From Vicinamibacteria bacterium (GTDB lineage Bacteria; Acidobacteriota; Vicinamibacteria; Marinacidobacterales; Marinacidobacteraceae): a DNA stretch of 64,000 nt. Where the stretch lies: assembly GCA_963668695.2 (NCBI GenBank), contig CAXXLQ010000004.1, positions 2,944,001 through 3,008,000 of the forward strand, in the 5' to 3' direction. The notes below the pieces were generated by a model. The model ran no database searches and was not told the DNA's origin. It was given only the letters and a program-made list of their open reading frames with translations. Shown piece by piece: positions 1,905-36,267 of the stretch. Position 1 is the stretch's first letter. Each line of letters opens with the position of its first letter. A program made the position numbers and the translations under genes.

Positions 1905-2101
1905 CAGCCTGTGCACAAAGTCACGCGGCCCAGTTCTCCCGGTGGGGGCTCGGCTGGCGATGCATCCCGGCTGAACCGCGCCTCTGCCAGGCGCTCTTCG
2001 TTGCGTTTCGGTCCAAATACACTCGGCATTCCTCCCTCACGCGCCTTGTCAGCCGGGCGCCTCACCAACCTCGGCGCTCACGTCACTTTATCCACAGGCC
2101 G
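1905..2101 (+). mobile_element. MITE-like hairpin element, family A; 20-nt cassette in slot A
   Basis: Ends CAGCCTGTGCACAAAGTCACG / CGTCACTTTATCCACAGGCCG; flanks CGAG/CTAG; core CGTTGCGTTTCGG...CCTCCCTCACGCGCCTTGTCAGCCGGG shared with other copies. Confidence 0.85.
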
Positions 2102-2175
2102 CTAGCCCCCGATTGCTTGTCGGCCCGCAGACGATAATGTTCGCCTTGGTGCCCCCGCTCTTTTTTCTCCCGCTC

Positions 2176-2853
2176 ATGATCGGCCCGCTCGGCATGCAGG
2201 AGATGCTGATCATCCTGGTGGTGGCGCTGATCGTCTTCGGTCCCCGGAAACTGCCACAGATCGGCAAGACGCTGGGAAAGAGCATTGCCGAGTTTCGGCG
2301 AACGAGCACCGAGCTGCGCAGCACCCTGGAGCGGGAAGTGCAGATGGAAGAGTTCCGGACGGCGCGCAGCGAGGTCTCCGGTCTCGGAAAGGAGGTGGCG
2401 GAGCTCGGGCGCGGGCTCGACCCGGACGCCGGCTCCGGTCCGTCCGCCGCAAAGCCGCCGTCCGCCGCAAAGCCGCCGTCCGCCGCAAAGCCGCCGTCCG
2501 CCGCAAAGCCGCCGTCCGCCGCAAAGCCGCCGTCCGCCGCAAAGCCGCCGTCCGCCGCAAAGCCGCCGTCCGCCGCAAAGCCGCCGTCCGCCGCAAAGCC
2601 GCCGTCCGCCGCAAAGCCGCCGTCCGCCGCAAAGCCGCCGTCCGCCGCAAAGCCGCCGGAAAGCGATGGAGGTGGCGCCGGTGATTCCGGAGAACCCTCT
2701 GCCACCCGGGAGAGGGAAACGCAAAACGGAACGGGCGACTCCTCAGCCTCCGGCCCCGAGACGGGAGTTGAGGAGGGTCCCGAAGGCGTCGCGGAAGGGG
2801 CGAGCGAAGCCGGAAGTGCGGAACGGGAGTCGGCAGACGACTCTGGCAAGTGA
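2176..2853 (+). CDS. tatA: Sec-independent translocase subunit, TatA/TatB family, with repeat-expanded tail
   Basis: MIGPLGMQEMLIILVVALIVFGPRKLPQIGKTLGKSIAEFRR (TM, FGP hinge, amphipathic helix); directly upstream of tatC; could be TatB. Confidence 0.85.
   Translation: MIGPLGMQEMLIILVVALIVFGPRKLPQIGKTLGKSIAEFRRTSTELRSTLEREVQMEEFRTARSEVSGLGKEVAELGRGLDPDAGSGPSAAKPPSAAKPPSAAKPPSAAKPPSAAKPPSAAKPPSAAKPPSAAKPPSAAKPPSAAKPPSAAKPPSAAKPPESDGGGAGDSGEPSATRERETQNGTGDSSASGPETGVEEGPEGVAEGASEAGSAERESADDSGK
2440..2655 (+). repeat. Perfect coding tandem repeat, 12 x 18 bp (CCGTCCGCCGCAAAGCCG = PSAAKP)
   Basis: 216 bp read directly as 12 identical units. Confidence 0.95.
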
Positions 2854-2889
2854 CGAGACGGGGCTGTTTCCTCGGCCCGGCGGAAGTTC

Positions 2890-3672
2890 GTGAGCGACTC
2901 TGACCGGACGGACCGCCCCGATGGGCCGGCCGACCGGATGACCTTCCTTGAACACCTGGACGAACTGCGGCGCCGTCTGATTCGGGCCGCGATCGCGATC
3001 CTGGTCGCGTTCGTGGGATGTTTCTTCTTCTACGAGGAGATTTTCGATTTCCTGATGCGGCCGCTGCGACGAGTCATCGAGCCGCTGGGGGGAGAGCTCA
3101 TCGCCACCACTCCGCCCGAGATCTTCCTCCTCGGGATCAAGATGAGCTTCCTGGTCGCCATCGTGGTTTCAACCCCGGCGTGGCTCGGGCAGGTCTGGGG
3201 TTTCGTCGCTCCTGGCCTCTACCGCCACGAACGCCATATCGCCTTCCCCTTCATCCTGGTGGGTTCCGCTTTCTTCATTTCCGGGGCGGCTTTTTGCCAC
3301 TATGTGCTCTTCCCCGCCGCTACCCAGTTCCTCGGGACGTTCGGAGGTGGCGGAGAGGACATCCAGATCCGGTATCGGGTCTCCGAGGTGTTCAGTTTCT
3401 ACGCGCGCCTCGTGCTGGCAACCGCGGTGGTGTTCCAGATTCCTACGCTGGCGCTGCTGCTCTCCCGTCTCGGGCTGATTTCGCCGAGCTTCTTGTGGCG
3501 GTACTTCAAGTACGCGGTGTTGATGAGTTTCGTGCTGGCGGCGCTTCTCACCCCGCCCGATCCCACCACGCAGATCATCCTGGCCGGGCCCATGATCGTG
3601 CTCTACACGCTGTCTATCGGGATCGCCTGGATCGGAAATCGCATGCACCGCCGAAAGAAGCCCGAGGAGTAG
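2890..3672 (+). CDS. tatC: Sec-independent translocase TatC
   Basis: MTFLEHLDELRRRL; WGFVAPGLYRHER; FQIP; AALLTPPDP. Confidence 0.95.
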   Translation: MSDSDRTDRPDGPADRMTFLEHLDELRRRLIRAAIAILVAFVGCFFFYEEIFDFLMRPLRRVIEPLGGELIATTPPEIFLLGIKMSFLVAIVVSTPAWLGQVWGFVAPGLYRHERHIAFPFILVGSAFFISGAAFCHYVLFPAATQFLGTFGGGGEDIQIRYRVSEVFSFYARLVLATAVVFQIPTLALLLSRLGLISPSFLWRYFKYAVLMSFVLAALLTPPDPTTQIILAGPMIVLYTLSIGIAWIGNRMHRRKKPEE

Positions 3673-3728
3673 GCCGGATTCCGGCGAGACCCGTGTGTCA
3701 CCATCCACCAGGCTGCTAGGATGACGCC

Positions 3729-5405
3729 ATGAGGCTCCGGGCGCGGGTCATCCCCCTGTTGATGCCGCTCCTCGTGGGCGCGGCGATCTCGGCCACCATT
3801 CTGGGTGTCCAGCCGGCGCGTGGAGTCCCGCCGTCGGACGGGCTGCGGATACTGCTCCAACGCCACGCGAACGTCATCCGGGAAATTGAAACGAAGTACG
3901 TCCGCGAGTTGGATCCCGAAACTCTTACCCGGGCGACGGTTTCGGGGATGCTTGTCCGGCTCGACCCCCACTCCAACCTGTTTGTCCCCCGCAACTACCG
4001 CCAGATGCGGGAGCGGCAACAGGGGGGTTATGTGGGACTCGGGATTCGGGTGCAGCACCAGAATGGGTTACTGACGGTCGTTTCCCCCTTTGAGGGGACT
4101 CCCGCATACCGGTTGGGGATTCGCGCCGGAGACGTGATCTCCCGAATCGAGGGCGTGGATGCAACGCAATACACGATGGACGAGGCGGTGACCCTGCTCC
4201 GGGGCCCCCGAGGGACGCCGGTCAGCATCACCATTACCCGTCCGGGTTACGACGCCCCGCTCGACTTCACCGTGATTCGGGACCGGATCCCGCTCAAGAG
4301 CGTGCCCTACTACTTCGTCCTCGATGAGCCCACCGGCTCCGAGAAGACGGGATATGTCCGGATCTCGGATTTCAACGAGAACACCGACAGCGAGTTGCGG
4401 GACGCCATCGTGGAGCTGCGCCTCGGCGGAGCGACCCGGCTGCTCGTGGACCTTCGTCACAACCCGGGCGGGCTCCTCAACCAGGCGGTCGCGGTCTCCA
4501 ACGTTTTCTTGAAACAGCACCAGGAAGTTGTTGCCATCCGGGGCCGTCATTCCGAGAACGACCAGGTTTTCTACGCGGAGGATCCCAGTCCCTACAGTGA
4601 TCTGCCGGTGATCGTGCTGGTTTCGCGAGAGAGCGCGTCGGCTTCTGAAATCGTGGCGGGTGCGGTCCAGGACCACGACCGCGGCCTCATCCTCGGCGAG
4701 AACACCTACGGCAAGGGGCTTGTCCAGTCGGTGTTTCAGTTGAAGTACGGCTACGCGCTCGGACTTACCTCTGCGGAGTACTTCACGCCAAGCGGCCGGC
4801 GTCTCCAGCGAGACTACGAATCGGGAGATTTCCTCGAGTACTTCCAGGGACGGGGAGAGCACGACTCCAACGACGAGGCGGGGACGATCGTGCTGACGGA
4901 GCTCGGTCGGGAGATCCGGGGCGGGGGTGGCGTCGCACCGGACATTGAAGTGCCCGCCCCGGAACTTCCGGAGGTGGTGGTGGAAGTCGAGCAACATGGA
5001 GCCTTCTTCCGGTTCGCCACCCGCTTCGTTCCGGCCGATGGCCGGGGCGCCGTGGACGGCGCGGGCACGCGGCCGGACGAGTTGGAAGCGCGGGGCGACC
5101 TGATCCGGGCGGTGGATCAGAGCTTCCGTGTCGACGAGACAACTGTTGAGGAGTTTTTCCTTTTCCTGTCTGAGGAGCGGATTCCGCACGACCGGGAGGG
5201 CCTTGACGAGCACCGCGATGCGGTGGCGCTGCGAATAGAAGGAGCGATTTTCAGTCTCCTTTGGGGCCCGGCGGCCTCGCGCGAGGCGACCATGGATCGC
5301 GACCCACAAATCGCGGCGGCACTTCAAGCGATGTCGCAGGCGGCTCTGCTTCTGAATGACCCCGAGGCCTACCTCGCCGGCGCCACCGGCGGGGAGGGCC
5401 GCTGA
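3729..5405 (+). CDS. S41A carboxyl-terminal processing protease with PDZ domain
   Basis: LDPHS, GLGI, PAYRLGIRAGD (PDZ); DLRHNPGGLL; SASASEIVAGAVQDHDR; GENTYGKGLVQ. Confidence 0.92.
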   Translation: MRLRARVIPLLMPLLVGAAISATILGVQPARGVPPSDGLRILLQRHANVIREIETKYVRELDPETLTRATVSGMLVRLDPHSNLFVPRNYRQMRERQQGGYVGLGIRVQHQNGLLTVVSPFEGTPAYRLGIRAGDVISRIEGVDATQYTMDEAVTLLRGPRGTPVSITITRPGYDAPLDFTVIRDRIPLKSVPYYFVLDEPTGSEKTGYVRISDFNENTDSELRDAIVELRLGGATRLLVDLRHNPGGLLNQAVAVSNVFLKQHQEVVAIRGRHSENDQVFYAEDPSPYSDLPVIVLVSRESASASEIVAGAVQDHDRGLILGENTYGKGLVQSVFQLKYGYALGLTSAEYFTPSGRRLQRDYESGDFLEYFQGRGEHDSNDEAGTIVLTELGREIRGGGGVAPDIEVPAPELPEVVVEVEQHGAFFRFATRFVPADGRGAVDGAGTRPDELEARGDLIRAVDQSFRVDETTVEEFFLFLSEERIPHDREGLDEHRDAVALRIEGAIFSLLWGPAASREATMDRDPQIAAALQAMSQAALLLNDPEAYLAGATGGEGR

Positions 5406-6701
5406 GTGATTCCTCGGCGCCCCTGGGGGGCTGGAGTCGGCCTGTGGCTCTTCGTCGGCGCGGCGACGTTGGGATTCGCGCAGTCGAGCGTCGAGGAACT
5501 GGCGGCTCGACTGGAGAGCAGTGATGCGAGGACTCGACGCGATGCGGCGCGAGAGCTCGGAGAAGATGGATCGTCAGAAGCGATCTCCGTTCTGAACGAG
5601 GCAGTCCGCGACATCGACCGCAACGTTCGACGCACGGTGCTCGATGCCCTGTTGTCCGTGAGGCGCCCCGATGCGGCGCCGGGACTGATCGCGTTCCTGG
5701 AGGACGAGCTTTCGGAAAATCGCCGGGACGCGATCGGTGGCCTCGTGGACATTCACAACCGGGAGGCGCCGCCCGGCCGGAGAGAACGGGCGATGGATTG
5801 GTTGCTCCGTCGGGAGCAGGCGTTCGTTCTCGATCCGCTGCGACCGGTGGAACCGCGTATCGTCGAGGCCTTGAGTGGACGGCTCACCGACGACGAGGAA
5901 GACAACCGCGAACTGGCCGCCGAGGCCCTGGGCGCCCTGAGGGCGGCTACCGCGGTGGGAGCTCTGGCCGCCGCCGCGTCGGAAGACCTCGAGGATGACG
6001 TGCGACGAGAAGCGATTCGCGCTCTCGGTGCGATCGGCACCGACGAAGCGGGGGAACGACTGCTCTCCATGGTGGAAGAACCGGAGCTTCGCGAGCAGGT
6101 GGTGCGCGCGCTGGGCCGCTTTGCCTACCGGCCGTCAGTCACCGCCCTGATCGGGGTGTACGACGCGGATCCCGAAAGCGATGTGGCCCGGGACGCCCTC
6201 GAAGCGTTGGCGCGGATCGGCGCCGAAGAGGCGCGCGGCACCTTCTACCATGAGCTGGGGAGCGATGACGCCCGGCGGCGCGAGTTCGCTGCCGAGGGTA
6301 TTGGGCGGATCGGAGATCCGGCGCTGGTGGACGGAATGATCCGGGACTTCCTGCGAGAAGAGGACCGGCGGGTGCAGCTTGCGTTCTGTTTCGCGCTCGT
6401 CCGGATGGGGCAGCCGCCGTTCGTGGACCGCATCATCCTTTCGCTTTCTGATTCGAGAGTGGGAGAAGTGGCCAGCCAGTACGCGCTGGAACTCGGCCGG
6501 GATTTCCTGCCCGACATGCTCCGTTATCTGGAGGATCCTGATCGGCAGGTACGGCTGGAACTCATTTCTCTGTTGGAACAACTCGGGGACGACAGCGCCA
6601 TTCCGTCGCTGCGGGCGACCACTCAGGATCCGGATTCGGAGGTGGCGGACCGCGCGCGTCTCGCCGTGAGGCGCCTGTCCGAGTCCGGAAACGGTCGGTA
6701 G
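5406..6701 (+). CDS. Exported HEAT-repeat protein
   Basis: Signal-like N-terminus; repeated 'VRREAIRALGAIG'-type HEAT/PBS units; abuts the S41 protease stop. Confidence 0.8.
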   Translation: MIPRRPWGAGVGLWLFVGAATLGFAQSSVEELAARLESSDARTRRDAARELGEDGSSEAISVLNEAVRDIDRNVRRTVLDALLSVRRPDAAPGLIAFLEDELSENRRDAIGGLVDIHNREAPPGRRERAMDWLLRREQAFVLDPLRPVEPRIVEALSGRLTDDEEDNRELAAEALGALRAATAVGALAAAASEDLEDDVRREAIRALGAIGTDEAGERLLSMVEEPELREQVVRALGRFAYRPSVTALIGVYDADPESDVARDALEALARIGAEEARGTFYHELGSDDARRREFAAEGIGRIGDPALVDGMIRDFLREEDRRVQLAFCFALVRMGQPPFVDRIILSLSDSRVGEVASQYALELGRDFLPDMLRYLEDPDRQVRLELISLLEQLGDDSAIPSLRATTQDPDSEVADRARLAVRRLSESGNGR

Positions 6702-6707
6702 AGCGGA

Positions 6708-8237
6708 GTGATGCCAAGCGCAAGCGGAGGCGCCAGCGACCGAACACCGCGCACCACGGTCTTCACCCGCTTGAACAACGGGTGGAAGGGTGAGACGATC
6801 CCGAACGTGCGTAGCGGCTTCCTTTCCCGCTGTGCGCCGGATTCCCGGATCCGGCGCTCCTTTCTGACCGGCCTGCTGCTTGTTGGCGCGAGCGGCGCGG
6901 GGCCGTTCCTCCAGCTTGCCGGAGCGGAACTCCCGTCGCGGAGATCCGTTTGGCCGGAGGTCCAGCGCGACGGCAAGTCTCTCGTGATTGGCCGTTTCAT
7001 CGGAAAGTTCGAGAGTCCCGACTTCCGTTCGCGCCGGATCGTTCTGCGGCATCGCGACACCGGACGGAACGAAACCCTGTCGGTGGACGATGGACTTGGC
7101 CTGATCAGTGAACTCGTGCCGCCGGGGGTCTATGACGTGGAGGCCATCGAGGCCGTCTACTTCCCCAACATCCGTCCGCTGAACGTCCGGAAGTTCCGCC
7201 CGATCCGGCAACGTTTCACGGTGTCCCCCAGAGAGCACGAGCGCGGGGAGACCTTGATCTCGGTACCGGCGGACCGCCCGGTCTATATCGGGACCATCCG
7301 CGCCGGCGCCGAGCGCCAGGGGATGGTCTACGAGGGGCAAAAGCTCCGGGTTCTGGACGACTTCGATGTGGCAATGGAGCGGCTCGCGGTTGCCTATCCG
7401 GCGCTCGCGATAAGCCTGAGCGAGCGAGCGGTGGTTCCCCAGCGGCACTTCATGCTTCGCCCCACCGAGCCGGAACCTCCACTCGAAATGATCGTGGGGA
7501 TGGAGGATCCCATCCGGCAGGCGCGCCGCTACATCGAGGACGGCAAGTTCGGACAGGCGATCAACTGGCTCTCGACCTTCATGCCGGTTTCCGACGCGCA
7601 GCGGAACGATGTTCGGCTGTTGATCGGAGAATCCCACCTGGGAGCCAGGAATATGGACCTCGCCATCGAGGAGTTCGGCGCGGTATTGCTGCAGGATCCA
7701 ACGAACCGCAGGGCGCTGCGGTTGCTCGCCCGTTCGCACTCGCTCAACGGGGACCTCGAAGACACCGAGAGCCTCTATCGGGCTCTACTCGATATTCGGC
7801 CGCGGGATGCGGAAGCCCACCTGCAGCTCGGTTACCTCTACGCCTTGCGTGCCGACGATGTGGGCGCCGAAGCGGCGTTCGAGGTCGCGTTCGAGACGGA
7901 TTTCGACTACCTGATGCACGATCTCGCGCCGTTCCTGATGGCGGTTCGGGAGCGTTCCAACAATCCGGAGATCCTCTATGAGCCTCCGCTACTGCGCAGC
8001 ACTCCGGTACCCTTGGCCGGTTCCGGTGGTTCGCGGCGCTCCGCGGAAAGAGACGGCATCATGGTGCTTATCGATCATCGCGGCCGGGTCAAGTCCGCGC
8101 ACTTCGCTCCCGAGAGTTCGAGTCGGGTCCACCAGATGATGATGTCCCTGGTCCGGGGGCGCTACAGCCCCGCCACGCTGAACGGCGTGGCCGTCCCGTC
8201 CATCATGGCCCTCGGCAACTTCGGCGCGGAACGCTAG
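6708..8237 (+). CDS. TPR-containing protein with C-terminal TonB_C-like domain (start uncertain)
   Basis: TPR-like helices ('DPTNRRALRLLA', 'RPRDAEAHLQLGYLY'); C-terminal 'VLIDHRGRV...YSPATLNGVAV'. Confidence 0.6.
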   Translation: MMPSASGGASDRTPRTTVFTRLNNGWKGETIPNVRSGFLSRCAPDSRIRRSFLTGLLLVGASGAGPFLQLAGAELPSRRSVWPEVQRDGKSLVIGRFIGKFESPDFRSRRIVLRHRDTGRNETLSVDDGLGLISELVPPGVYDVEAIEAVYFPNIRPLNVRKFRPIRQRFTVSPREHERGETLISVPADRPVYIGTIRAGAERQGMVYEGQKLRVLDDFDVAMERLAVAYPALAISLSERAVVPQRHFMLRPTEPEPPLEMIVGMEDPIRQARRYIEDGKFGQAINWLSTFMPVSDAQRNDVRLLIGESHLGARNMDLAIEEFGAVLLQDPTNRRALRLLARSHSLNGDLEDTESLYRALLDIRPRDAEAHLQLGYLYALRADDVGAEAAFEVAFETDFDYLMHDLAPFLMAVRERSNNPEILYEPPLLRSTPVPLAGSGGSRRSAERDGIMVLIDHRGRVKSAHFAPESSSRVHQMMMSLVRGRYSPATLNGVAVPSIMALGNFGAER

Positions 8238-8399
8238 CCGGACCTGACAACCTGCTGGCGGTGCTGTCGCTGAGCGCCGCGAAATTCGCGGTGGCCGCGG
8301 AACTGTAGGCGCCAGACACCCTCTGGGTTGCTTGGCGTCCGCAGCACCCATCCCTCGGGGCCAGCCCGAACGCCGATGAGGGATTCGCTGATCCGCTGC

Positions 8400-9912: not shown

Positions 9913-10043
9913 GGCCGCCCGTTACCTGAGGGGTGAGGTGTGCGGGCCGGACCGCTCACGGGGCGTTTCTCCCGGTTGCGGCCTCGGCTCTCACCTCATT
10001 TCATCCAGACGAGGCCAACCTCGGTGGGGCCCGCCGACGCGGT

Positions 10044-10811: not shown

Positions 10812-11088
10812 CGAAGAAGCCTAGCCCGGACTTTTCCTACCGACGATTTCACGAGAGACGCTGGTTGCCGTAACTTGTTGACAATCTCATTGGTTGCGCA
10901 TGAGACTCAGACCCCGGCCGAGCTGACGGCGCGCACGTCCGGGAACGCCGGCCAGTTCTCCCGGTGGGGGCCTTCAGACCGGCAGCGCCCGCCGAGAGGC
11001 GGGCGAAAGGCGCGACGCGGGCGGTGTGGTTGCGACGCCCGACTTGCCGCCGTGCGGCATGCGGAGTATGAGAAATGCGGCCTAGCCC

Positions 11089-12544: not shown

Positions 12545-12547
12545 GGG

Positions 12548-14286: not shown

Positions 14287-14342
14287 CGTTCTCGGGGGGC
14301 CGGCGCCGGTCTCCTGGCCGGGTCGGCTTCCCGGGACAGGGG

Positions 14343-24349: not shown

Positions 24350-24367
24350 GACGAAGCGGAAGTCTAG

Positions 24368-24443
24368 GAGCCCGTGGACAAGTCACGCGGCCCGGTTCTC
24401 CCGGTGGGGCTCTCGCCGCTCACTTGACTTCATCCACCGGCTC
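24368..24443 (+). mobile_element. Minimal 76-bp derivative of family A MITE (termini plus a variant cassette)
   Basis: GAGCCCGTGGACAAGTCACG...TGACTTCATCCACCGGCTC flanked by CTAG/CTGG; contains CCGGTTCTCCCGGTGGGGC. Confidence 0.65.
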
Positions 24444-24546
24444 CTGGGCGCGGCACGGGTGGATTGCCGATGTGCGGACGGGCATCTCCTGCGGCCATCG
24501 TCTCCCGGGTACCATCACGCGCCCAGATCAATCGGGGGGTCCGCAG

Positions 24547-25767
24547 ATGCCGCTTCATGTCCAGGTCGCCATAGGGGCCGCGGCCGGAGTCCTCGTCGGG
24601 ATCCTGTTCGGAGAGCAGGCCGCGGTCCTCCAACCGCTTGCGGACCTGTTCGTGCGGCTCCTGCGGATGATCATCGCTCCGCTGATCTTCGTCACCCTGG
24701 CGCTCGCGCTGACGCGGACCGGAGGCCGGGGCACGGGCAGGATCGGCGTCCGGGCGATCGCCTACAACCTGAGCACGCTGGCCGTCGCGCTGGCGATCGG
24801 CATCGGCATCGCCGTCTGGCTCGGGCCGGGACGGGGGGTGGACATTTCGGCCCTCGGAGGCGCCGACCAGGCCACGGGCCCAACTGCCGGAGAGGCCCGG
24901 TCCATCGTGGACATTCTGGTCGGCATCGTTCCGACGAACGTCGTGGGAGCTTTCGCCGAAGCCGAGGTCCTGCAGGTCCTCTTCCTGGCGATCTTGTTCG
25001 GGGTAGCCGTAAACGCGCTCGGCAGCGAACGCGTGAAGCCGCTCATCGACGTGCTGCAGGCAGTGAACGATGTCCTCTACCGGGTCGTCCACTGGGTCGT
25101 CCTGCTGGCGCCGGCCGGGGTGTTTGCGATTCTGGCCGCAGTGGTGGGCCAGTCCGGGCTCGACATTCTGGGGACGCTCGCCTGGTATGTCACCGTCTGC
25201 CTCATCGCCACGCTCGTGCACGTGGGCGGAGTGCACGCCATGCTGCTCCGGCTTTGGGCTCGCCAGCCGCTCCGGAAGCTCTTGCGAGCGTTGCGCGAGC
25301 CGCTGCCCATTGCCTTCGCGTCCGTCTCGACCGCTGCGGCGCTTCCGGTCTCCATGGCGGCGGTGCCCCGCGAGACGGGAATCTCCGAGAAGGTGGCGGG
25401 GTTTGTGCTGCCTTTCGGCGCCGCGGCCGGCAGGGATTCCAGCGGGATCTATCAGGTGGTGTCGGTCGTCGCGATAGCCCAACTCGTGGGCCGTCCGCTC
25501 GACGCGGGCGAGCTGGGAATCCTTTGGGTAACGGCGATTCTGAGTTCGCTCGCGACCTCCGCGGTTCCCGCCGCCAGCTTCGTGAATCTCACCATCCTGC
25601 TGGGAGCGCTGGGCCTTCCGGTGACGCTGGCGGCGCTGGTGCTGGCGGTCGAGCGTCCGCTCGACCATCTCAGAACGAGTGGCAACCTGATCGGCCAGAT
25701 CTCGAACGCGATCTTCACGGGCGCCACCAGCGGGGAAATCGCCGTCCGGGGGGCGAAGCAGGATTAA
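24547..25767 (+). CDS. Dicarboxylate/amino acid:cation symporter (DAACS/SDF family)
   Basis: LFVRLLRMIIAPLIF; IVPTN; LQVLFLAILFG; AFASVSTAAALP; FVLPFGA; LDHLRTSGNLIG. Confidence 0.88.
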   Translation: MPLHVQVAIGAAAGVLVGILFGEQAAVLQPLADLFVRLLRMIIAPLIFVTLALALTRTGGRGTGRIGVRAIAYNLSTLAVALAIGIGIAVWLGPGRGVDISALGGADQATGPTAGEARSIVDILVGIVPTNVVGAFAEAEVLQVLFLAILFGVAVNALGSERVKPLIDVLQAVNDVLYRVVHWVVLLAPAGVFAILAAVVGQSGLDILGTLAWYVTVCLIATLVHVGGVHAMLLRLWARQPLRKLLRALREPLPIAFASVSTAAALPVSMAAVPRETGISEKVAGFVLPFGAAAGRDSSGIYQVVSVVAIAQLVGRPLDAGELGILWVTAILSSLATSAVPAASFVNLTILLGALGLPVTLAALVLAVERPLDHLRTSGNLIGQISNAIFTGATSGEIAVRGAKQD

Positions 25768-26183
25768 CAGCCTGTGGTGAAACCCAGGCGGCGTTCGGCC
25801 GGCGATCCATCCCGGCCAAACAACCGGTAGTGAAACCCACGCGGCGTTCGGCCGGCGATCCATCCCGGCTGAACCGCGCCGCTTCGCGCCGCTCATCGTT
25901 GCGTTTCGGTCGCAAAACACCCGGGCCAGTTCTCCCGGTGGGGGCTCCTCCCTCACGCGCCTTGTCAGCCGGGCGCCTGACCGGCCTCGGCGCTCACGTG
26001 GGTTCCACCACCGGCTGTTCACCGCGCCGCTTCGCGCCGCTCATCGTTGCGTTTCGGTCGCAATACACCCGGGCCAGTTCTCCCGGTGGGGGCTCCTCCC
26101 TCACGCGCCTTGTCAGCCGGACCCCCACCGGGAGAACTGGGCCTCACCGGCCTCGGCGCTCACCCGGGTTCCACCACAGGCTG
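25768..26183 (+). mobile_element. Composite family A MITE (duplicated left end and duplicated core/right half; 3 cassettes)
   Basis: CAGCCTGTGGTGAAACCC...GGGTTCCACCACAGGCTG with perfect TTAA direct repeats at 25764-25767 and 26184-26187. Confidence 0.88.
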
Positions 26184-26186
26184 TTA

Positions 26187-27191: not shown

Positions 27192-27209
27192 CCGAACTTT
27201 GCGCTCGGC

Positions 27210-28844: not shown

Positions 28845-29440
28845 GGAGTTACCCGCCCGATCCGGCGCCAGGGGAAGACCCGGAAAACGGCTTCGCCGAT
28901 GATGGCGTCCCTGGACACCGTTCCCCAATGGCGGCTGTCGCTGCTCCCGCTCCGGTTGTCGCCGAGCACGAAGTAATCCCCGGCTTCGAGTGCCACCGAT
29001 ACCGCTCCCGGGCCATCCACCGCACGCGGGGCCTCGGCCCCGGAGGCGTTCGCCACCGGGGTCATGGCCTCCCGGAGCGCGCTCGCCGCGTCGGATCCCG
29101 GAAACACCTGAACATGATTGCCCGAAAACCGCACCGTATCTCCCGGCACCCCGATCACCCGCTTCACCATCACGGTGTCTTCGTCGGATGGATCATGAAA
29201 GAGGACGACATCGTCACGGGCGATGGAAGAGAGGCGGACGCCCAGCTTGTTCACCAGCACCCGCTCCCCGGAGCGGAGCGTAGGCGCCATGCTCGACCCC
29301 TGGATGCGGTACACCTGCGCACCGTACGCCAGCAAGACCCAGGCCGTGGCGCCGGCGATCGCCGCGGTACGGAGAAACCGCCACCGCGGCCGGAGGTTGC
29401 CCTTCGGCGCGATTCCGGAAGCCTCTGACATCCCGGTCAC
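28841..29440 (-). CDS. lepB: Signal peptidase I
   Basis: GSSMAPTL (Ser); VKRVIGVPGD (Lys); YFVLGDNRSGSSDSR. Confidence 0.93.
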   Translation of the reverse strand: MTGMSEASGIAPKGNLRPRWRFLRTAAIAGATAWVLLAYGAQVYRIQGSSMAPTLRSGERVLVNKLGVRLSSIARDDVVLFHDPSDEDTVMVKRVIGVPGDTVRFSGNHVQVFPGSDAASALREAMTPVANASGAEAPRAVDGPGAVSVALEAGDYFVLGDNRSGSSDSRHWGTVSRDAIIGEAVFRVFPWRRIGRVTP

Positions 29441-31347
29441 ATCCGTTCGGGAACGGGAATGCCAAGGAGCGCGAGCCCCTGTCGATGCTGGGTCAGAAAT
29501 GTCTCCACTGCGTAGGTTCGCAGCAACCGTTTGGTGGGATCCGGCTCACCGGCGATGCGGTAGCGCTCGTAGAAGCCATTGAAACGCTGCGCTCCTTCGA
29601 AGGCCCAGCGGGCGAGGACCTGCGGGTCTTCGCCGGCGGCGGCCGCCGCGGCCGTTTCCCGGAGTTCGAGCGCCCCCCGGAGAAGGATCCAGAGGTCGGC
29701 TGCTTCTTCGGGGTCCAGTTCGGCGAGGCGTTCGTTGAACCCCTCCGGCGGCAGGGGACACACGTCCGGCGCGGCACGCTCGAGCCGCGCGAGGATTTTC
29801 GCGGCCCGCACCGCCGCGTACTGCAGGTACGGCCCGGTGGCCCCTTCGAGGCTGAGGGCCTCCTTGAGATCAAAGACGATGAGCTGATTCTTGGTCACCC
29901 GCACCATCCGGTAGCGCAGCGCGCCGACCGCGATCGCCAGCGCCACGGACCTTTGCTCTTTCGCAGGAACGTCAGGATTCCGCGCTGCGACTTCTTCGGT
30001 CGCCCGTTCGAGGAGCGCGTCGAGGAAGTCATCGGCCTTGACTCCGACCCCCTTGCGGCCGGAAACCTCCACTGCACCGGCTCCCGGGGCGGCCACCAGA
30101 CCGAGCGCCTCCACCGTGGCCGGCGTCAGCGCCACTATTTCGTACGACAAATGGCGGGTTCGGGCCCGGTCGACTTCGGAGGTCAGCCGGGCCACGGCTT
30201 CCTGGACGACCTGTTGGGGGTAGGACTGCCGGGCGTCGATCACGTGATGGACGAGCGCCGCCGACCCGAAGCTCGGAGCGTCGGCATCGCCGGGCTCGGT
30301 GGTGCTGATCCAGGCGCGCCGGCCGTCGGGATACTCGTAGAACCGGCGCCAGCGGAAGTCGCGATCCAGGAGACCGAGCTGCCACAGCTGGTAGGCGATG
30401 TCCTTGCCCACGTACGTCACGGTGGCGTTGGAGCGAACGATGACCTTTTCGCCGTCCTGGGCCAGATCGGTATCCATCACCCAGCAGCCGCGGTTCTTGC
30501 CGGACTCGCTCAGGCGGATGGCGCCCCGGTCCCGCAGCAACTCGAAGGCGCGTTCCCAGAAGTGGAGGTGAAGGATCGACTTCTCACACGGCAAGAGGTC
30601 GTAGCGGACCCCGATCCGTTCCATGGTTTCGAGGTGCCGGTGCGCGATGGCGTCTGCCACGATGGCGCCCATCTCCGCCCAGGGCTCTTCGCCGTGCTCG
30701 AGGCCGTGGAGCGCCTCCTGGCGAGCGGCGCGCCCTTTCGGATCCTCCTCGACCCAGCGGGACACCTGGGTGTAGAGATCCCAGCACAGATAGTCGAAGC
30801 GTGGTTTTGCTACGAGGCGTCGCACCTCCTGCGCATCCAACCCCCGAAGTCGAAGGAATCCGAGGACTACATCCGCGACCTGTACTCCAGTGTCGTCGAT
30901 GTAGGTCTGAACCTCGATCCGGTGCCCCAGATACCTGAGGATGCGGGCAAAGGCGTCACCGAGGGTGGCGTTTCTCAGATGGCCGATGTGGGCCGCCTTG
31001 TTCGGGTTGATGCTGGTGTGTTCGACGACGTGGACCCCTGGGGGGGCCTGGGCGCCTGCTCCGGCAAGGGTGTGCCGGATCCACATTTCCCGGTTCAGAA
31101 AGACATTGACGTACCCGGGACCGGCCACTTCCACCCTCCGGACCTCGGGCCGCTCCGAGAGCGCCTCCGCGAGGGTCTCCGCGATCTCTCGGGGGGGACG
31201 CCGCAGGTGGCGCGCCAATCCGAACGCAGCGGGGAACGCGAGGTCCCCCTGATCCGGTGACGGGGGAATCTCGGACACCACCGGGAAGTCCGGCGCTCCC
31301 GCGTTGGCGGCGATTTCGCGGATGACTTCCTCAAGCGCGGCGAACAT
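29437..31347 (-). CDS. argS: Arginine--tRNA ligase
   Basis: VAGPGYVN; EHTSINPNKAAHIGHLRN; SGRKG; GPYLQYAAVR; LGIPVPERM. Confidence 0.95.
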   Translation of the reverse strand: MFAALEEVIREIAANAGAPDFPVVSEIPPSPDQGDLAFPAAFGLARHLRRPPREIAETLAEALSERPEVRRVEVAGPGYVNVFLNREMWIRHTLAGAGAQAPPGVHVVEHTSINPNKAAHIGHLRNATLGDAFARILRYLGHRIEVQTYIDDTGVQVADVVLGFLRLRGLDAQEVRRLVAKPRFDYLCWDLYTQVSRWVEEDPKGRAARQEALHGLEHGEEPWAEMGAIVADAIAHRHLETMERIGVRYDLLPCEKSILHLHFWERAFELLRDRGAIRLSESGKNRGCWVMDTDLAQDGEKVIVRSNATVTYVGKDIAYQLWQLGLLDRDFRWRRFYEYPDGRRAWISTTEPGDADAPSFGSAALVHHVIDARQSYPQQVVQEAVARLTSEVDRARTRHLSYEIVALTPATVEALGLVAAPGAGAVEVSGRKGVGVKADDFLDALLERATEEVAARNPDVPAKEQRSVALAIAVGALRYRMVRVTKNQLIVFDLKEALSLEGATGPYLQYAAVRAAKILARLERAAPDVCPLPPEGFNERLAELDPEEAADLWILLRGALELRETAAAAAAGEDPQVLARWAFEGAQRFNGFYERYRIAGEPDPTKRLLRTYAVETFLTQHRQGLALLGIPVPERM

Positions 31348-31390
31348 CGGCGCGGAGTCTAGTGGCTGGACCGGGCCGGCCCCGATCTAA

Positions 31391-31660
31391 CAACCTATGG
31401 TGAAACCCAGGCGGCCCAGTTCTCCCGGTGGGGGCTCGCCCGGCGATGCATCCCGGCTGAACCACTCCGCTTTGCTCCATTCTGCGTTGCGTTTCGGTCG
31501 AAATACACCCGGGCCAGTTCTCCCGGTGGGGGCTCCTCCCTCACGCGCCTTGTCAGCCGGGCCCCCACCGGGAGGACTGGCCCCACCGGGAGAACTGGGC
31601 CTCGCCCCCACCGGGAGGACTGGCCGGGCTCGGCGCTCACCCGGGTTCCACCACAGGCTG
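31391..31660 (+). mobile_element. Family A MITE carrying 5 cassettes (slots A, B, C tandem, D)
   Basis: CAACCTATGGTGAAACCC...GGGTTCCACCACAGGCTG; flanks CTAA/TTAG. Confidence 0.88.
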
Positions 31661-31688
31661 TTAGTGCCTGGTGTCGCGCCGGCGGAAG

Positions 31689-32663
31689 CTACTTGCGGCC
31701 TTCCGGACCGTTCGATGGTTCGTAAGGTCCGTAATAGCCTCGTCGGGCTCGGACTTCGACCTCGTCATGCCCCGGTGCGGTTACTTCCACCTCGATGCGC
31801 CGGTAGCGGCCCTCTCGCCGGGTATTCGAGGAGACATAACCGATCGTGTACTGGCTGTAGAGCTCGTTCAGGATGCGGTCGTAGAGTTCGTCGAGCTTCT
31901 CGAGAGAGGACGCGAACGCGTAGGAACCGCCGCTGGCCTCGGCGATCGCACGCAGGAAGCGGGCGTTTTGGAATACCTCGGCTTGCCTCGCGCGATCTCC
32001 GAACTGGATCGAATGAATCGTCGTTTCCCCGAGCTTTACGAGGTCCAGCGCTTCCGAGAACATGAGGGTGGAGCGGGAGTCGGCGCCGTCGCTGAACACC
32101 GCCAGCGTCTTCCTGCCGTCGTAGTCGTACACGCGGTCGAGGAACGTGGCGACCGCGTCGTAGAGCGCCGTCCACCCCTCGGCTTCGATCTCGTAGATCC
32201 GGTTCGAGATGGTGCGCTGGTCGTCGCTTGAGTACTCGGAAAGCCAGATGTTCTCGTCGAAGCTGATGACGAACAGATTTTCGGTCCTCGGGATGTTGGT
32301 GAGGAATTTGATGGCCGCCTCGTGCAGGAGCGACAAGTCCTCCTCCATGCTGCCCGATGAATCAAGAAGCAGGCCGATTACCTGTTTTTGCGAAAGCTCC
32401 TCCTTCTGATCCGGCGGGAGATCTACCCACGATTCCTCGAGTCCGGCGCCGAAGACGAGGATTTCCTGCTCCACGCCGTCCTCGAGGACGCGGAAGTTCT
32501 GGGCGCCGAGTCCCGTGATGAACTCTCCATCGTCCGTGGTGACCGCCACCGGTACCGAGACGAGATCCACCCCCGCTTCGAACCGGAAGATCTCCTGTTC
32601 CTGGGCAGGCGCGGCGGAGGCGAAGAGCGCCAGCCCCGCGCCGGCGAGAGGCATCCGGATCAT
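31689..32663 (-). CDS. Exported VWA-domain protein (acidobacterial VWFA-related type)
   Basis: Signal peptide; VDLVSVPVAVT...FRVLEDGVEQ; MIDAS DSSGS; TALYDAV; FSDG; QYTIGY...YRRIEV...RARRGY. Confidence 0.85.
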   Translation of the reverse strand: MIRMPLAGAGLALFASAAPAQEQEIFRFEAGVDLVSVPVAVTTDDGEFITGLGAQNFRVLEDGVEQEILVFGAGLEESWVDLPPDQKEELSQKQVIGLLLDSSGSMEEDLSLLHEAAIKFLTNIPRTENLFVISFDENIWLSEYSSDDQRTISNRIYEIEAEGWTALYDAVATFLDRVYDYDGRKTLAVFSDGADSRSTLMFSEALDLVKLGETTIHSIQFGDRARQAEVFQNARFLRAIAEASGGSYAFASSLEKLDELYDRILNELYSQYTIGYVSSNTRREGRYRRIEVEVTAPGHDEVEVRARRGYYGPYEPSNGPEGRK

Positions 32664-32808
32664 GCGCCGGATTCTCCCACTCGGTGCCGAGACGGCGCGA
32701 GCGCCGCCCTTGGCAGGCGGTCGCAAAAGGCAGCCGGCATCAGTCCGCGGCGCGGAGCGCTGCGTGGGGGGAGAGGGGGTGAGGAGGGGTTTCCCCAAGG
32801 GTCGTTAG

Positions 32809-33029
32809 CAGCCTGTGGTGAAACTCTGAAGGCATCCATTCGCGGCGCGCAGCGCCGCGGGGGTGGGGTGTGGGGAGGGGTTTCCCCTCCCCACGAAAGA
32901 CGGTGGAGTGAATCGCGCAGCGATTCGCCCCACCAACCTGTGGTGAAAGCGCCCCGCACGCACACAAACCCCCAGATTCGGCGCGCGGGACGTCCCGGGG
33001 CCCGTGCGGGGTGCTTTCACCACAGGCTG
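32809..33029 (+). mobile_element. MITE-like element, family B (same termini as family A, different interior)
   Basis: CAGCCTGTGGTGAAA...TTTCACCACAGGCTG; flanks TTAG/TCAG; internal hairpin GTGGGGAGGGGTTTCCCCTCCCCAC; related fragment at about 32745-32800. Confidence 0.78.
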
Positions 33030-34895
33030 TCAGATGAGTCCCGCCACGCTCCGAATGGCAAGGTCAAAGCGGTTGAAGGGCGGCATCACGTAGACGCCGG
33101 CGGCGCTCTCCCGCGCCGCGGCCACCATGTCCCGGGCGACCGAGACGCCGACCTCTCGCGCGCGCTGCCGGGACGGCGCCGCCGCCAATCTGTCCCGGAC
33201 CGATTGCGGGACGCTCATTCCCGGAACCTCGTTGTGGAGGAACTCGGCGTTTCTGGAACTCACCAGCGGAAGGACCCCCACGATCACGGGAACTCCGAAG
33301 TGGCGCACCTCGGCCAGGAATCTATCGAGCAGGCTGGATTCGTACACCGGCTGGGTGAGGCAGTACTGAGCGCCGGCCTCCACCTTCTTCTCGAACTTGC
33401 GCATCTCGGCATCCGGGTCGGCGGCCGCCGGGTTCGCACCGACCCCGATGTAGAAGGGAAGGGCGGCGCCGAGAGGGTTTCCGGCGAGGTCGAGGCCGTG
33501 GTTCAGGCCGCCGAGGATGCGGACGAGGCCTACCGAGTCCACGTCGAACACCGGCGTCGCGTGCGGGTAGTCCCCGAGCTTCGGCGGGTCGCCGGTGACG
33601 GCGAGCAGATTGCGGATGCCGAGAGCGTGAGCCCCCAACAGGTCCGCCTGGATTCCGATCAGGTTGCGGTCCCGGCACTGGTAGTGGAGGATCGTCTCCA
33701 CCTGACCGCTCCGCTCGAGAAGCGCCGCGAACGCGATGGCGCTCATGCGGGCGGTGGCCCTCGGTCCGTCCGCCACGTTCACGAAGCGGATGCCGGCATC
33801 GGCGAGTGCCCGCACCTTGTCGAGGAACTTGCCGGGATCGGCGCCGCGCGGGGGATCCATCTCCACCGAGACGGCGAATTCGCCGTCCAGCAGGTGGCGC
33901 GCGAGGCTCGAACGGTCGGCCACCTCGACCGCGGCAACCCCGGCAGGTTCCGTTTCCTCCGAGACTCTGGCGGCGGCCGGCAACGGCGCCTTGACGCGCG
34001 CCGCCCGGGAGGCGGCGGACGCCGCCCGGACCACGCCGGCAACGGCGCCGATATGTTCGGCGCCGGTGCCGCAACATCCGCCGATCAGCGACACCCCGAG
34101 CCGGAGATACCGCTTCGCATAGTGGGCCACGTAGTCGGGAGACGACGGATACAGGAAGCGCCCCTCGACCCGCTCCGGAATGCCGGCGTTCGGCTGGGCG
34201 ACGAGCGGGAGACTCACCGCGTCCCGCATGCGCTCGAGGGCCGTGAGCGTGGTGTCCGGCCCCACCCCGCAGTTCGAGCCGACAGCGTCAGCGCCTTCCC
34301 GGGCAAGCGACTTCGCCGCCTGGTCCGCCGAAACGCCAAAGAGAGTCGTCGCCTGTTCGGAAAACGTCATCAGCACGATGACCCCGATGTCGGGCGCCAA
34401 CTCTCGCGCGGCAGAAAGCGCGAGACGCGCCTCGGCAAGGCTGGTGAAGGTCTCGATCAGGACGGCGTCCACCCCGCTCTCGACGAGTGCGCTGATCTGT
34501 TCCCGGAATCCCGCGGCGAACTCCGGGGGCTTCTCCTCGTCGAGCGGACCGACGACTTCGCCGCTCGGTCCCACGGATCCGAGGACCAGCACTCCCGGCC
34601 GGACCGCGCGGCGCGCCACGGCAACTCCGGCGGCGTTGATGGCCGCAACTTCGGAGGCGAGACCGTGCCGGCCGAGCTTCCAGCGATTCGCCCCGAAGGT
34701 GTTGGTGCTGACCACCTCGGCACCGGCCCCGACGTGGGCGGCGTGGATCGCCCGGACCCGGTCCGGGTCGGAGCGATTGAGATCGTCGAACGACCGCCTC
34801 GCCGCGACCCCGCCGGTATAGAGCGCCGACCCGATCGCGCCGTCGCCGACCCGGGGCCGTTCCCGCAAGAAAGCGGTCAGTTCGGAACGCCGCAT
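33030..34895 (-). CDS. Bifunctional homocysteine S-methyltransferase / 5,10-methylenetetrahydrofolate reductase (YitJ-like)
   Basis: DGAIGS; TNTFGAN; GGCCGTG; SVEMDPPRG; CRDRNLIGIQADLLG; TGDPP; AEFLHNEVPG. Confidence 0.93.
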   Translation of the reverse strand: MRRSELTAFLRERPRVGDGAIGSALYTGGVAARRSFDDLNRSDPDRVRAIHAAHVGAGAEVVSTNTFGANRWKLGRHGLASEVAAINAAGVAVARRAVRPGVLVLGSVGPSGEVVGPLDEEKPPEFAAGFREQISALVESGVDAVLIETFTSLAEARLALSAARELAPDIGVIVLMTFSEQATTLFGVSADQAAKSLAREGADAVGSNCGVGPDTTLTALERMRDAVSLPLVAQPNAGIPERVEGRFLYPSSPDYVAHYAKRYLRLGVSLIGGCCGTGAEHIGAVAGVVRAASAASRAARVKAPLPAAARVSEETEPAGVAAVEVADRSSLARHLLDGEFAVSVEMDPPRGADPGKFLDKVRALADAGIRFVNVADGPRATARMSAIAFAALLERSGQVETILHYQCRDRNLIGIQADLLGAHALGIRNLLAVTGDPPKLGDYPHATPVFDVDSVGLVRILGGLNHGLDLAGNPLGAALPFYIGVGANPAAADPDAEMRKFEKKVEAGAQYCLTQPVYESSLLDRFLAEVRHFGVPVIVGVLPLVSSRNAEFLHNEVPGMSVPQSVRDRLAAAPSRQRAREVGVSVARDMVAAARESAAGVYVMPPFNRFDLAIRSVAGLI

Positions 34896-34936
34896 GAACC
34901 GCTCCAACTCGCGGTGTTCGCCACCGGCAGGGTTAG

Positions 34937-35187
34937 CAGCCGGTGGTGGAACCCGGGTGAGCGCCGAGGCCGGTGAGGCCCAGTTCTCCCGGTGGGGCCA
35001 GTTCTCCCGGTGGGGGCCCGGCTGACAAGGCGCGTGAGGGAGGAGCCCCCACCGGGAGAACTGGCCCGGGTGTATTTCGACCGAAACGCAACGACGAACG
35101 GCGCGAAGCGACGCGGTTCAGCCGGGATGGATCGCCGGCCGAGCCCCCACCGGGAGAACTGGGCCGGCTGGGTTTCACCACAGGCTG
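34937..35187 (-). mobile_element. Family A MITE, reverse orientation, 4 cassettes
   Basis: CAGCCGGTGGTGGAACCC...GGGTTTCACCACAGGCTG with perfect TTAG direct repeats. Confidence 0.88.
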
Positions 35188-35266
35188 TTAGGCTCAGCAG
35201 GAGGCTGCGAGAGTTCGACGGTGCGTCCCCCCGGCCGACGGGTTTCCGCTTCCTTCGGGTCGAAAG

Positions 35267-35484
35267 TAGTCTGTGGCGAGAGCCGGGCGGCATCGGCTCG
35301 CGGCGCGGAGCGCCGCGGGGGAGGGGTGTGGGGAGGGGTTTCCCCGCCCCACGAAAGACGATGGCGCGGATCGCGGAGCGATTCGCGGCATCAACCCGCG
35401 GGGAGAGCGTCCCGCACGCACAAACTCCGCGCGATCCGACGCGTCTGTCGTCGCGGGAACCGTGCGGGAGGCTCTCCCCACGGG
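35267..35484 (+). mobile_element. Diverged family B element
   Basis: Colinear similarity to 32809-33029 (CGCGGCGCG.AGCGCCGCGGGGG.GGGGTGTGGGGAGGGGTTTCCCC.CCCCACGAAAGACG...GCGATTCGC); boundaries approximate. Confidence 0.7.
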
Positions 35485-35796
35485 TCAGTAGCCGACCACC
35501 CAACGGTGATCTGCCACGAAGCGGAAACCCGAAGCCAGCGGACGGAGGCCGAGTTCGGCGACCAGCGAGCGGGAGAAGGCCCGCCCCAGGATGGCGTTCA
35601 CGTCCTCGCCGGTGCTCTTCGCCTGCTCTTCGGCGGCGGTGGAGGCGAGATCGGTGACGAGCATCGTGCCTTCAACGGTTTCGCTCCCGGAGACGGCCTT
35701 CACCGACCAGGGCTGATGCTTGTCGGTGTCGGTGCGTTCGGCGATTTCCACGGCGCCCGTCCAGCGGGCGCCACGGCCTTCAAAGCTGACCTGCAT
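35485..35796 (-). CDS. Small hypothetical protein (103 aa)
   Basis: MQVSFEGRGARWTGAVEIAE...DHRWVVGY; protein-like composition; fills the gap between two repeat elements. Confidence 0.6.
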   Translation of the reverse strand: MQVSFEGRGARWTGAVEIAERTDTDKHQPWSVKAVSGSETVEGTMLVTDLASTAAEEQAKSTGEDVNAILGRAFSRSLVAELGLRPLASGFRFVADHRWVVGY

Positions 35797-35814
35797 GGGG
35801 TGGAATTGTATTAG

Positions 35815-36265
35815 CAACCGGTGGGCAAAGTGGCGTGAGCGCCGAGGCCGGCGAGGCCCAGTTCTCCCGGTGGGGGTCCGGCTGACAAGGCGCGTGAGGA
35901 AGGAGCCCCCACCGGGAGAACTGGCCCGGGTGTATTTCGACTGAAGCGCAACGATGAGCGACGCGAAGCGGCGCGGTGAACAGCCGGTGGCGGAACCCGC
36001 GTGAGCGCCGAGGCCGGTGAGACGCCCGGCTGACAAGGCGCGTGAGGAAGGAGCCCCCACCGGGAGAACTGGCCCGGGTGTATTTCGACCGAAACGCAAC
36101 GATGAGCGGCGCGAAGCGACGCGGTCAGCCGGGATGGATCGCCGGCCGAGCCCCCACCGGGAGAACTGGGCCGCGTGGGTTTCATCACGGGCTGTTTGGC
36201 CGGGATGAATCGCCGGCCGAGCCCCCACCGGGAGAACTGGGCCGCGTGACTTTGTTCACAGGCCG
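35815..36265 (-). mobile_element. Composite family A MITE, reverse orientation, 5 cassettes
   Basis: CAACCGGTGGGCAAAGTGGCG...CGTGACTTTGTTCACAGGCCG; duplicated right half and left end as in 25768-26183. Confidence 0.85.
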
Positions 36266-36267
36266 CT

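Follow-up and report, generated by a model that had tools for sequence, protein, structure and literature searches.

The closest described counterparts of the repeat treated here are the small dispersed repeats (SDRs) of cyanobacteria. SDR1-8 of heterocyst-forming cyanobacteria were reportedly described by Elhai et al. 2008 as highly repeated, non-coding sequences of about 20-27 nt that lie at specific short target motifs; they are said to be nested in mini-transposons and in each other, comparison of related genomes reportedly indicates recent insertion, and the mechanism is said to be unknown. One account presents small dispersed repeats of cyanobacteria as mobile repeats of very small size that have specific sites of insertion (PMC5861425). 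The repeat in question, hereafter the cassette, occurs in a stretch of 64,000 nucleotides (the window) of a Vicinamibacteria bacterium (GenBank assembly GCA_963668695.2, contig CAXXLQ010000004.1, positions 2,944,001 to 3,008,000, or C4:2944001-3008000 of the source genome G000, which has four contigs, 4.10 Mb and 67.5% G+C; other G numbers denote related genomes, of which the sister genomes are syntenic with G000). An earlier note had described it as a 20-nt sequence recurring at several slots within a family of transposable elements of the miniature inverted-repeat type (MITEs). We consider it somewhat more probable than otherwise (about 55%) that the cassette, rather than being a building block of the MITE, is an insertion unit in its own right, non-autonomous and with defined ends, which colonises hairpin repeats and owes its constancy to a sequence-specific force. 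The statement of the earlier note that no described element behaves in this way was too strong, since the cyanobacterial SDRs, as described in that account, are similar.

By SDR criteria, the cassette resembles these repeats in being small, dispersed, located at specific target motifs and nested in mini-transposons, and also in being nested in its own kind, although the latter holds for OZ246946-type loci and not for G000, G001 and G004. It differs from SDRs as reported in belonging to another phylum, in its apparently unrelated sequence, in its shorter length (18-20 nt) and in the replacement of 1-3 nt; moreover, it has long forms that share both of its ends, and it targets repetitive extragenic palindromic (REP) sequences of the type linked to REP-associated tyrosine transposases (RAYTs) in addition to a MITE.

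Comparison with other short bacterial repeats is instructive in this regard. MITEs derive from insertion sequences (IS) by internal deletion, as exemplified by the IS630-linked RUP and Correia-type elements. Like IS-derived MITEs, the cassette is non-autonomous, reaches a high copy number and comes in size classes with common ends (150-370 versus 18-20 nt); unlike them, it has no terminal inverted repeat or target duplication, its ends are asymmetric, it is ten-fold smaller, and a search covering G000 as well as 800 kb from each of G001 and G004 gave no autonomous parent. Bacterial interspersed mosaic elements and enterobacterial repetitive intergenic consensus (ERIC) sequences are mosaic intergenic repeats of enterobacteria, and ERIC copies carrying inserts at fixed places within them are known, whereas the optional module here is a single invariant 18-mer common to unrelated repeat families and genera. 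Unlike IS200/IS605-type (PATE-like) elements the cassette shows no replication-orientation bias, and unlike DNA uptake sequences it is not spread through unique DNA or genes. According to two sources, REP sequences and REPINs (REP doublets forming hairpins) are, like the cassette, short, extragenic, abundant and hairpin-linked, and REPINs insert into or beside other REPINs (PMC3116915, PMC6006769). REP arrays that flank a RAYT gene are an arrangement described in the first of these (PMC3116915), and one host of the cassette (Host 2, below) flanks a RAYT gene in just such arrays in G001 and G010. On the other hand, the cassette has no real palindrome, is absent from the RAYT loci examined and is abundant where RAYT was not found. 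REP/REPIN sequences, classical MITEs, IS200/IS605-type elements and uptake sequences each fail to match in at least one of the defining features compared. A literature search retrieved no paper with the 18-mer string or the genus name 'Marinacidobacterium', and a broad query on MITE, nested and REP elements returned nothing relevant.

The cassette is strongly conserved, and its invariant part is 18 nt long (CCAGTYCTCCCGGTGGGG). It had been presented as a fixed 20-nt sequence (CCAGTTCTCCCGGTGGGGGC), which is real and nearly invariant except that positions 19-20 vary, GC being commonest and CC, GT and GG occurring as well. At no more than 2 mismatches, the threshold for all counts unless stated otherwise, the 20-mer has 19 matches in the window (11 exact) versus none in 100 shuffles, and a genome-wide count gave about 1,600 copies in the 4.1-Mb genome (1,601, of which 962 exact), evenly spread with contigs C1 and C3 included; the corresponding figure for the 18-mer is 1,631 (1,288 exact). 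Because positions 19-20 vary, and because tandem cassette arrays have an exact period of 18 nt, the true unit is taken to be 18 nt. Its positions are conserved at about 97-99.8% per site, with the exception of position 6, a T/C variant at which C is found in 190 of 1,646 copies (set at no more than 3 mismatches), and decayed cassettes are scarce in G000, 45 having 3 mismatches. The ends read 5'-CCAGT...TCTCCCGGTGGGG(GC)-3', and there is no terminal inverted repeat, CCAGT... and ...GGTGGGGGC not being inverted copies of one another. Pairing within the unit is limited to CCC-GGT-GGG, with no imperfect palindrome of the REP kind, and in predicted folds hairpins involving cassettes form solely between two inverted cassettes. 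At orthologous filled sites the core has 8/450, 1/342 and 8/270 mismatches, compared with flank divergences (40+40 nt) of 8.8%, 12.2% and 19.9%, which places the core 5-40 times below its flanks. Conversion between paralogues alone would homogenise the flanks too, and therefore the core appears to be kept or rewritten by something sequence-specific. The conservation of the core and its low divergence among orthologues bear out the view that the cassette stays nearly invariant while its host diverges.

The cassette also has an identity apart from its hosts. The main host is an IS630-type MITE that duplicates TA, with ends RCAGCCTGTGG and TA on either side, of which G000 has 416 copies with paired ends. 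Their lengths come in steps of about 170, 190, 210, 230 and 250 nt, 108 copies being free of cassettes and some holding up to nine. Excision of the 18-mers brings 242 of the 329 oriented copies to 185-189 nt, and the cassette is regarded as separable from the MITE because its removal collapses the lengths in this way. Cassettes explain the steps of 18 nt between MITE copies as well as the breaks in short-read assemblies of these symbionts, contigs assembled from public runs being broken at every MITE. In consensus coordinates the main slots and their cassettes are S28(+) with 122, S62(-) with 46, S108(+) with 132, S139(-) with 162 in 100 elements and S146(-) with 89; rarer slots exist, including S149 and S56. 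Four slots in one MITE family had been proposed (A, B, C and D, here S28, S108, S139 and S146): all four are genuine, their replaced nucleotides are the same in genome-wide junction tables, and the list has to be extended by further slots (S62, S149, S56 and others) and by further host families. Among the 329 oriented MITEs, all 122 filled S28 slots read GGC[18]GC TCG, where [18] stands for the 18-nt core, and all 207 empty ones GGC GT TCG, while one S28 cassette gained in G001 retains GT. At S108, TAT is replaced by G[18]GC; S139 shows a clean 18-nt insertion, frequently doubled; at S146 one nucleotide (T, C or G) is replaced. Twenty-nine of the 32 possible occupancy patterns of the five slots were found among 261 full-length MITEs, and a tree of MITE bodies (147 columns, median support 0.76) requires 25-71 occupancy changes per slot, near the values obtained with shuffled labels.

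Targets and junctions are fixed across hosts. In about 40 slot classes, filled copies have the 18-mer followed by GC (CC, GT or GG being less frequent) in place of the GT, AT, TT, T, TC or GC of empty copies; the left flank of the cassette ends in GG or GC, and 1-3 nt, usually ending in T, are replaced. Target sites include CCGG|T, GGC|GT, CGG|TAT and GC|GAT. Filled junctions are uniform, and empty copies of one slot vary, as at S146. Comparison of filled with empty sites revealed no target duplication, the change being either a replacement of 1-3 nt or a clean gain of 18 nt; together with the sequence of the ends, these junctions uphold the claim that the cassette lacks both a terminal inverted repeat and a target duplication.

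Fixed slots are occupied in at least three unrelated repeat families, namely the MITE, the REP-like Host 2 and Host 3, and the hairpin and REP context suspected from the window was borne out. Host 2 has the form GGRRCGCCGG T CTTCAGACCGGC AYCGC, followed by a variable G+C hairpin and by GAAAC. Its loop motif has 244 hits in G000, of which 75 are filled on the left, where the cassette replaces the T of the first hairpin (GCCGG T C TTCA GACCGGC); the mirror position on the other arm can also be occupied. Its second hairpin varies between copies and yet remains paired (GCGGCC-GCA-GGCCGC, GCCCGCC-GCA-GGCGGGC and GCGCGG-GA-GCGCG), as seen at 53481-53625 in the window, where two Host 2 units without a cassette lie on the forward strand, and at many other G000 loci; these differences are compensatory variation. 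Host 3 is a family of several perfect palindromes, GGGGAGGGGTTTCCCCTCCCC followed by GGTGGNGCGAATCGC-GCA-GCGATTCGCNCCACC, located at 32850-32990 and 35290-35450 in the window, with about 45 further copies in G000, and it often adjoins MITE ends. In another genus (OZ246946.1 loci) the cassette is inserted into itself, with the junction CCAGTTCTCCCGG[18]GC GGGG and the T of its own CCGG|T replaced, and 4-5 of 20 copies in OZ246946.1-type loci are self-nested. No cassette was found in unique coding DNA of G000, all 102 copies within long open frames being MITE or REP contexts near the frame ends.

Long forms of 150-370 nt, which have the two ends of the cassette and occupy the slots that it does, are new here and had been missed by the first description. 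At the right end, the last 13-15 nt of the cassette close a longer conserved sequence, ...GACCCGATCATGNGGGTT TCTCCCGGTGGGG(GC), in 28 copies with the usual right flanks of the slots. At the left end, CCAGTT opens a conserved module, CCAGTTGCTGTGAAAATGCAG..., in 20 copies with the usual left flanks, and 16 of these modules have a same-strand TTCTCCCGGTGGGG end at a distance of 88-573 nt (some of these being a full cassette in an embedded REP unit). Complete long forms measure about 150-370 nt from end to end, often enclose a REP unit, are rarer than the 18-20-nt form and are also present in G001 and G004; the right-end motif is shared by 13 of the genus's 15 other genomes, and a hit with 3 mismatches in the unpublished genome G033 was disregarded. 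As the long forms bear both ends, the cassette amounts to those two ends joined; it may derive from a long form, or a long form may be a cassette into which something was inserted. A small reverse-strand open reading frame (ORF) of the long form was rejected as coding because its frames are not conserved, and candidate autonomous forms with 2-8 kb between the ends turned out to be spurious pairings with the next cassette. Rfam gave no family at gathering score in the window, chance-level hits only at REP-like loci and none at long-form loci.

Orthologous sites reveal turnover, gains included. Across 800 kb of G000, G001 (about 94-95% identical to G000) and G004 (87-94%; the more distant G008 has 85-93%), 104 of 305 cassette clusters were anchored in all three genomes, comprising 75 regions and 251 sites that were coded in this order as filled (F), empty (E) or lacking the host repeat (A). 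Where the host is present in all three, the patterns are FFF at 6 sites (and at 3 more with a degenerate copy), EFE at 2, FEE at 1, FFE at 1 and EEF at 2, with neither EFF nor FEF. Polarised by the outgroup, these comprise 3 terminal gains (EFE 2, FEE 1) and 0 terminal losses, FFE and EEF being ambiguous. One gain concerns a Host 3 hairpin at 32902-32934 (+), which is empty in the window and in G004, and in which the orthologous GAT (32922-32924) has become A[18]GG in G001. Between G000 and G001, which are about 5% apart, 28 sites with the host in both are alike and 8 differ (8/36). Most of the 251 sites are single-genome (83 FAA, 48 AAF, 31 AFA), and the hosts must also turn over, because most sites sit in repeats that are missing at that place in the other genomes. 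The composite MITE at 25767-26185 (+) illustrates such variation: in the window it holds cassettes at 25926 (+, S108), 26074 (+, S108) and 26121 (-, S139), both S28 slots being empty, and its orthologues are filled in G001 and empty in G004 at S28 of the first unit, empty in both at the S108 site that is filled in G000, and occupied at S146 in the last unit of G001, where G000 is occupied at S139; the orthologue is a single unit in G004, and in G008 the MITE is absent. The proposal that cassettes were gained repeatedly and independently is supported by these differences between orthologues, by the gains polarised with the outgroup, by the 29 of 32 occupancy patterns, by occupancy that barely tracks the MITE tree and by nucleotides that are varied in empty slots and uniform in filled ones.

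Among related genomes, the 20-mer (at no more than 1 mismatch) occurs in 21 of 41, all independent assemblies: in 15 of 15 others of the same genus, in 5 of 9 from other genera of the family and in 0 of 16 from two other families, its sequence being identical across genera. Public records deposited by several submitters contain it in 91 stretches, and the window stretch was found in sequencing runs of 7 studies, mostly labelled sponge metagenome. Numbers of MITE cores and cassettes are uncoupled across genomes (608/1,497 in G000, 280/690 in G001, 395/721 in G004, 359/636 in G008, 95/11 in G010, 49/9 in G007, 12/1 in G020, 31/244 in G018 and 0/13 in G023); no cassette was found in G017, G022 and G024.

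If the cassette is an insertion unit of its own, it would lodge at short G-rich sites before T in hairpin-forming repeats, replacing 1-3 nt; once lodged, it would travel with the host repeat and be reshuffled among repeat copies, probably via short-patch conversion, and its constancy would reflect either re-templating or selection for a bound factor. Each new slot would then be a true insertion event, and a dedicated enzyme would be expected to exist. For this enzyme, a single-strand nuclease of the HUH type, as in the REP/RAYT system, offers no more than a lead, which is weakened by the absence of the gene from G000. A more specific proposal, which seems to us doubtful and is put forward tentatively, is that of a 'DNA stamp': sequence-specific machinery, with an element-encoded template or by end recognition only, would write the fixed 18-20-nt string into hairpin sites of the CCGG|T type, replacing the T, and would be active in marine Vicinamibacteria with a product that is constant across genera.

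Of 13 other genomes sampled in the genus, 12 have a RAYT gene (NCBIfam NF047646, REP-associated tyrosine transposase, 94.7 bits versus a cut-off of 80). Host 2 arrays flank it in G001 (L205, C17:2353500-2357000) and G010 (L208, C1:750000-753500), in the latter in direct orientation upstream and inverted downstream. Seven RAYT loci of 3-3.5 kb (L205-L211) contain 0 cassettes, whereas Host 2 units flank the gene, and the RAYT region of G001 has no counterpart in G000 past the upstream gene. Downstream of the RAYT gene of G010 (L208:1800-2700), an 80-nt unit with an inverted REP hairpin (GCCGGTGTGAACACCGGC) is repeated in tandem at least 10 times. A search for the Y2 HUH domain (PF04986) had no match in G000, its control search being likewise matchless everywhere.

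Several observations weigh against a dedicated insertion unit. The reverse transcriptase domain RVT_1 had no match in G000 and matches in just 3 of 26 family genomes, and Y1_Tnp had none in G000; RAYT was not found in G000, G004, G018 and G019, all of them rich in cassettes (completeness 92-94%), nor did the G001 RAYT protein as a query retrieve anything from these four even at E<=10. Neither G000 nor 800 kb from each of G001 and G004 yielded an autonomous long copy containing an open reading frame, and the right-end motif of the long forms was present in 0 of the 9 genomes searched from the family's other genera, four of these genomes having cassettes. Slot occupancy shows no replication-strand bias relative to MITE orientation (odds ratio, OR, 0.55-1.08, none significant), total cassette counts being 422/428 and 372/343 (origin and terminus placed from GC skew only). 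Self-nesting is absent in G000, in 158 G001 copies and in 182 G004 copies, the polarised gains number just 3, and the resolution of the MITE tree is low. Some gains are accompanied by extra flank changes, more like conversion than de novo insertion, and since repeats hold nearly all copies, hitch-hiking together with conversion between repeat copies can account for much of the spread. Furthermore, a 1-3-nt replacement matches, to our knowledge, no textbook transposition chemistry. Two sources had been proposed earlier for the cassette, templated insertion and selection for a protein-binding site. The low orthologous divergence supports selection or another sequence-specific force, but insertion driven by a reverse transcriptase is not supported by the RVT_1 results, nor is a resident HUH/REP-type enzyme supported, given the cassette-rich genomes in which RAYT was not found.

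The main rival is a functional motif, such as a protein-binding site or a signal of the uptake or recombination type, that is under selection or drive and has been spread by gene conversion and host amplification alone, with no insertion machinery; we regard this as a tenable minority view, possible and clearly the less probable one. It explains the conservation, that is, the 5-40 times lower divergence of the core at orthologous sites and the identity across genera, and it agrees with the flank changes at some gains, which are typical of conversion tracts, with the failure to find a transposase candidate, and with paired inverted cassettes that extend the predicted MITE hairpin (-82.9 versus -48.3 kcal/mol). 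It does not explain unrelated contexts under a common junction rule, nor self-nesting: conversion cannot make the first copy in a new context, yet at least three unrelated families are occupied, flank clustering yields 128 context classes (73 of them singletons), copies lie within copies, and the junction is of one kind. If it were a selected binding site, copies should likewise turn up in unique intergenic DNA, but both flanks are unique in just about 8 of the 107 rare-context copies, nearly all others having one repeated flank. Nor are S28 and S146, whose cassettes pair in the fold, filled together (OR 0.91).

It is less probable still, and in our judgement unlikely, that the cassette is the crossover site of a site-specific recombinase, comparable to dif or attC, whose activity would join, delete and swap modules and thereby create mosaic repeats and long forms. 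Such exchange would fit the strong sequence conservation, the tandem arrays of exact 18-nt period and the chimeras in which the left flank of MITE slot S28 is combined with the right flank of S149 or of a REP slot, with other material between the two cassette halves. It leaves the clean single-unit gains of 18-20 nt at orthologous empty sites unexplained, and no recombinase is linked to the cassette. The sole IS110-family (DEDD) transposase gene of G000 (C4:482375-483622, L217:1477-2724, 415 aa) belongs to a single element whose ends are unrelated to the cassette, and it was rejected as a source. The element lies inside a REP-like unit, whose first hairpin it interrupts, and a near-identical one lies in a REP unit of G004.

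Very improbable is a MITE that ancestrally held all cassettes and later lost some by precise deletion; the fixed length difference between filled and empty copies would suit it, but the polarised changes are 3 gains and 0 losses, empty slots are varied (T/C/G; GC/GG/AC) where filled junctions are uniform, MITE cores and cassettes number 95/11 in G010 and 12/1 in G020, and the cassette also occupies hosts other than the MITE. An adapter, primer or assembly artefact has a negligible chance, given copies that are in register within repeats and conserved at orthologous sites, in 21 of 41 related genomes assembled as single or many contigs, in 91 public-record stretches from several submitters and in runs of 7 studies.

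Should insertion by a dedicated mechanism be the correct reading, the cassette would be about the smallest mobile unit known in bacteria, and a site-specific writer of a 20-nt tag would be of technical interest; should it be a selected binding site, it would mark a new genome-wide system in sponge symbionts. These genomes provide unusually good natural experiments, with closed genomes 5-15% apart that have filled and empty orthologues, fixed targets, long and short forms and a self-nesting lineage, by which the old question of the way in which REPs, SDRs and other very short repeats multiply becomes testable.

Within the window, 20 copies had been counted by eye; 19 match the 20-mer, and the remaining one is a degenerate cassette at 24392-24409 (+; CCGGTTCTCCCGGTGGGG) in a truncated MITE at about 24368-24443, which reads CCGGTTCTCCCGGTGGGGCT and has 3 mismatches to the 20-mer. 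Their positions agree with ours save for one, placed at 31581, which starts at 31579 (20-mer, minus strand). Slots A-D and the occupancies given for the elements at 1905, 25768 and 31391, and for the empty ones at 38611, 55713 and 60763, agree with the sequence, and the tandem arrays proved correct, with an offset of 18 nt (31561/31579 and 34980/34998). The first cassette (1930-1949, +) occupies S28 of the MITE at 1904-2102. That at 10952-10971 (+) lies in a Host 2 element at about 10941-11010 and reads GCCGG[20-mer]CTTCAGACCGGC, empty copies having T at this place. A fully loaded MITE at 31390-31661 (+) holds cassettes at 31416 (+, S28), 31514 (+, S108), 31561 and 31579 (-, in tandem at S139) and 31604 (-, S146). 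On the reverse strand, the MITE at 34936-35188 carries four cassettes that the G001 orthologue has too, a tandem pair at 34980 and 34998 and single ones at 35045 and 35143, and a composite MITE at 35814-36266 has cassettes at 35858, 35905, 36053, 36150 and 36221. Cassette-free MITEs, all on the forward strand, lie at 38610-38790, at 55712-55883 and at 60762-60942, the last with an empty S28 that is filled in the G001 orthologue. The MITE at 38610-38790 is itself absent at this site in G001, G004 and a contig of run X1 and is present in the more distant G008, a pattern to be explained by a precise loss or by insertions that happened independently at the same TA.

Two observations concern the assemblies. 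Many positions of G000 contig C1 have identical twins on C4:300000-440000 (for example, C1 111793 = C4 335876 and C1 136844 = C4 311988). It is possible that C1 duplicates a chromosomal region or represents an alternative version of one; contamination of G000 is reported as 9.3%. Finally, a 6-kb contig labelled as part of a gammaproteobacterial metagenome-assembled genome (JAKZVH010000183.1, L043) bears cassettes in typical REP-like contexts and is probably a mis-binned acidobacterial contig.

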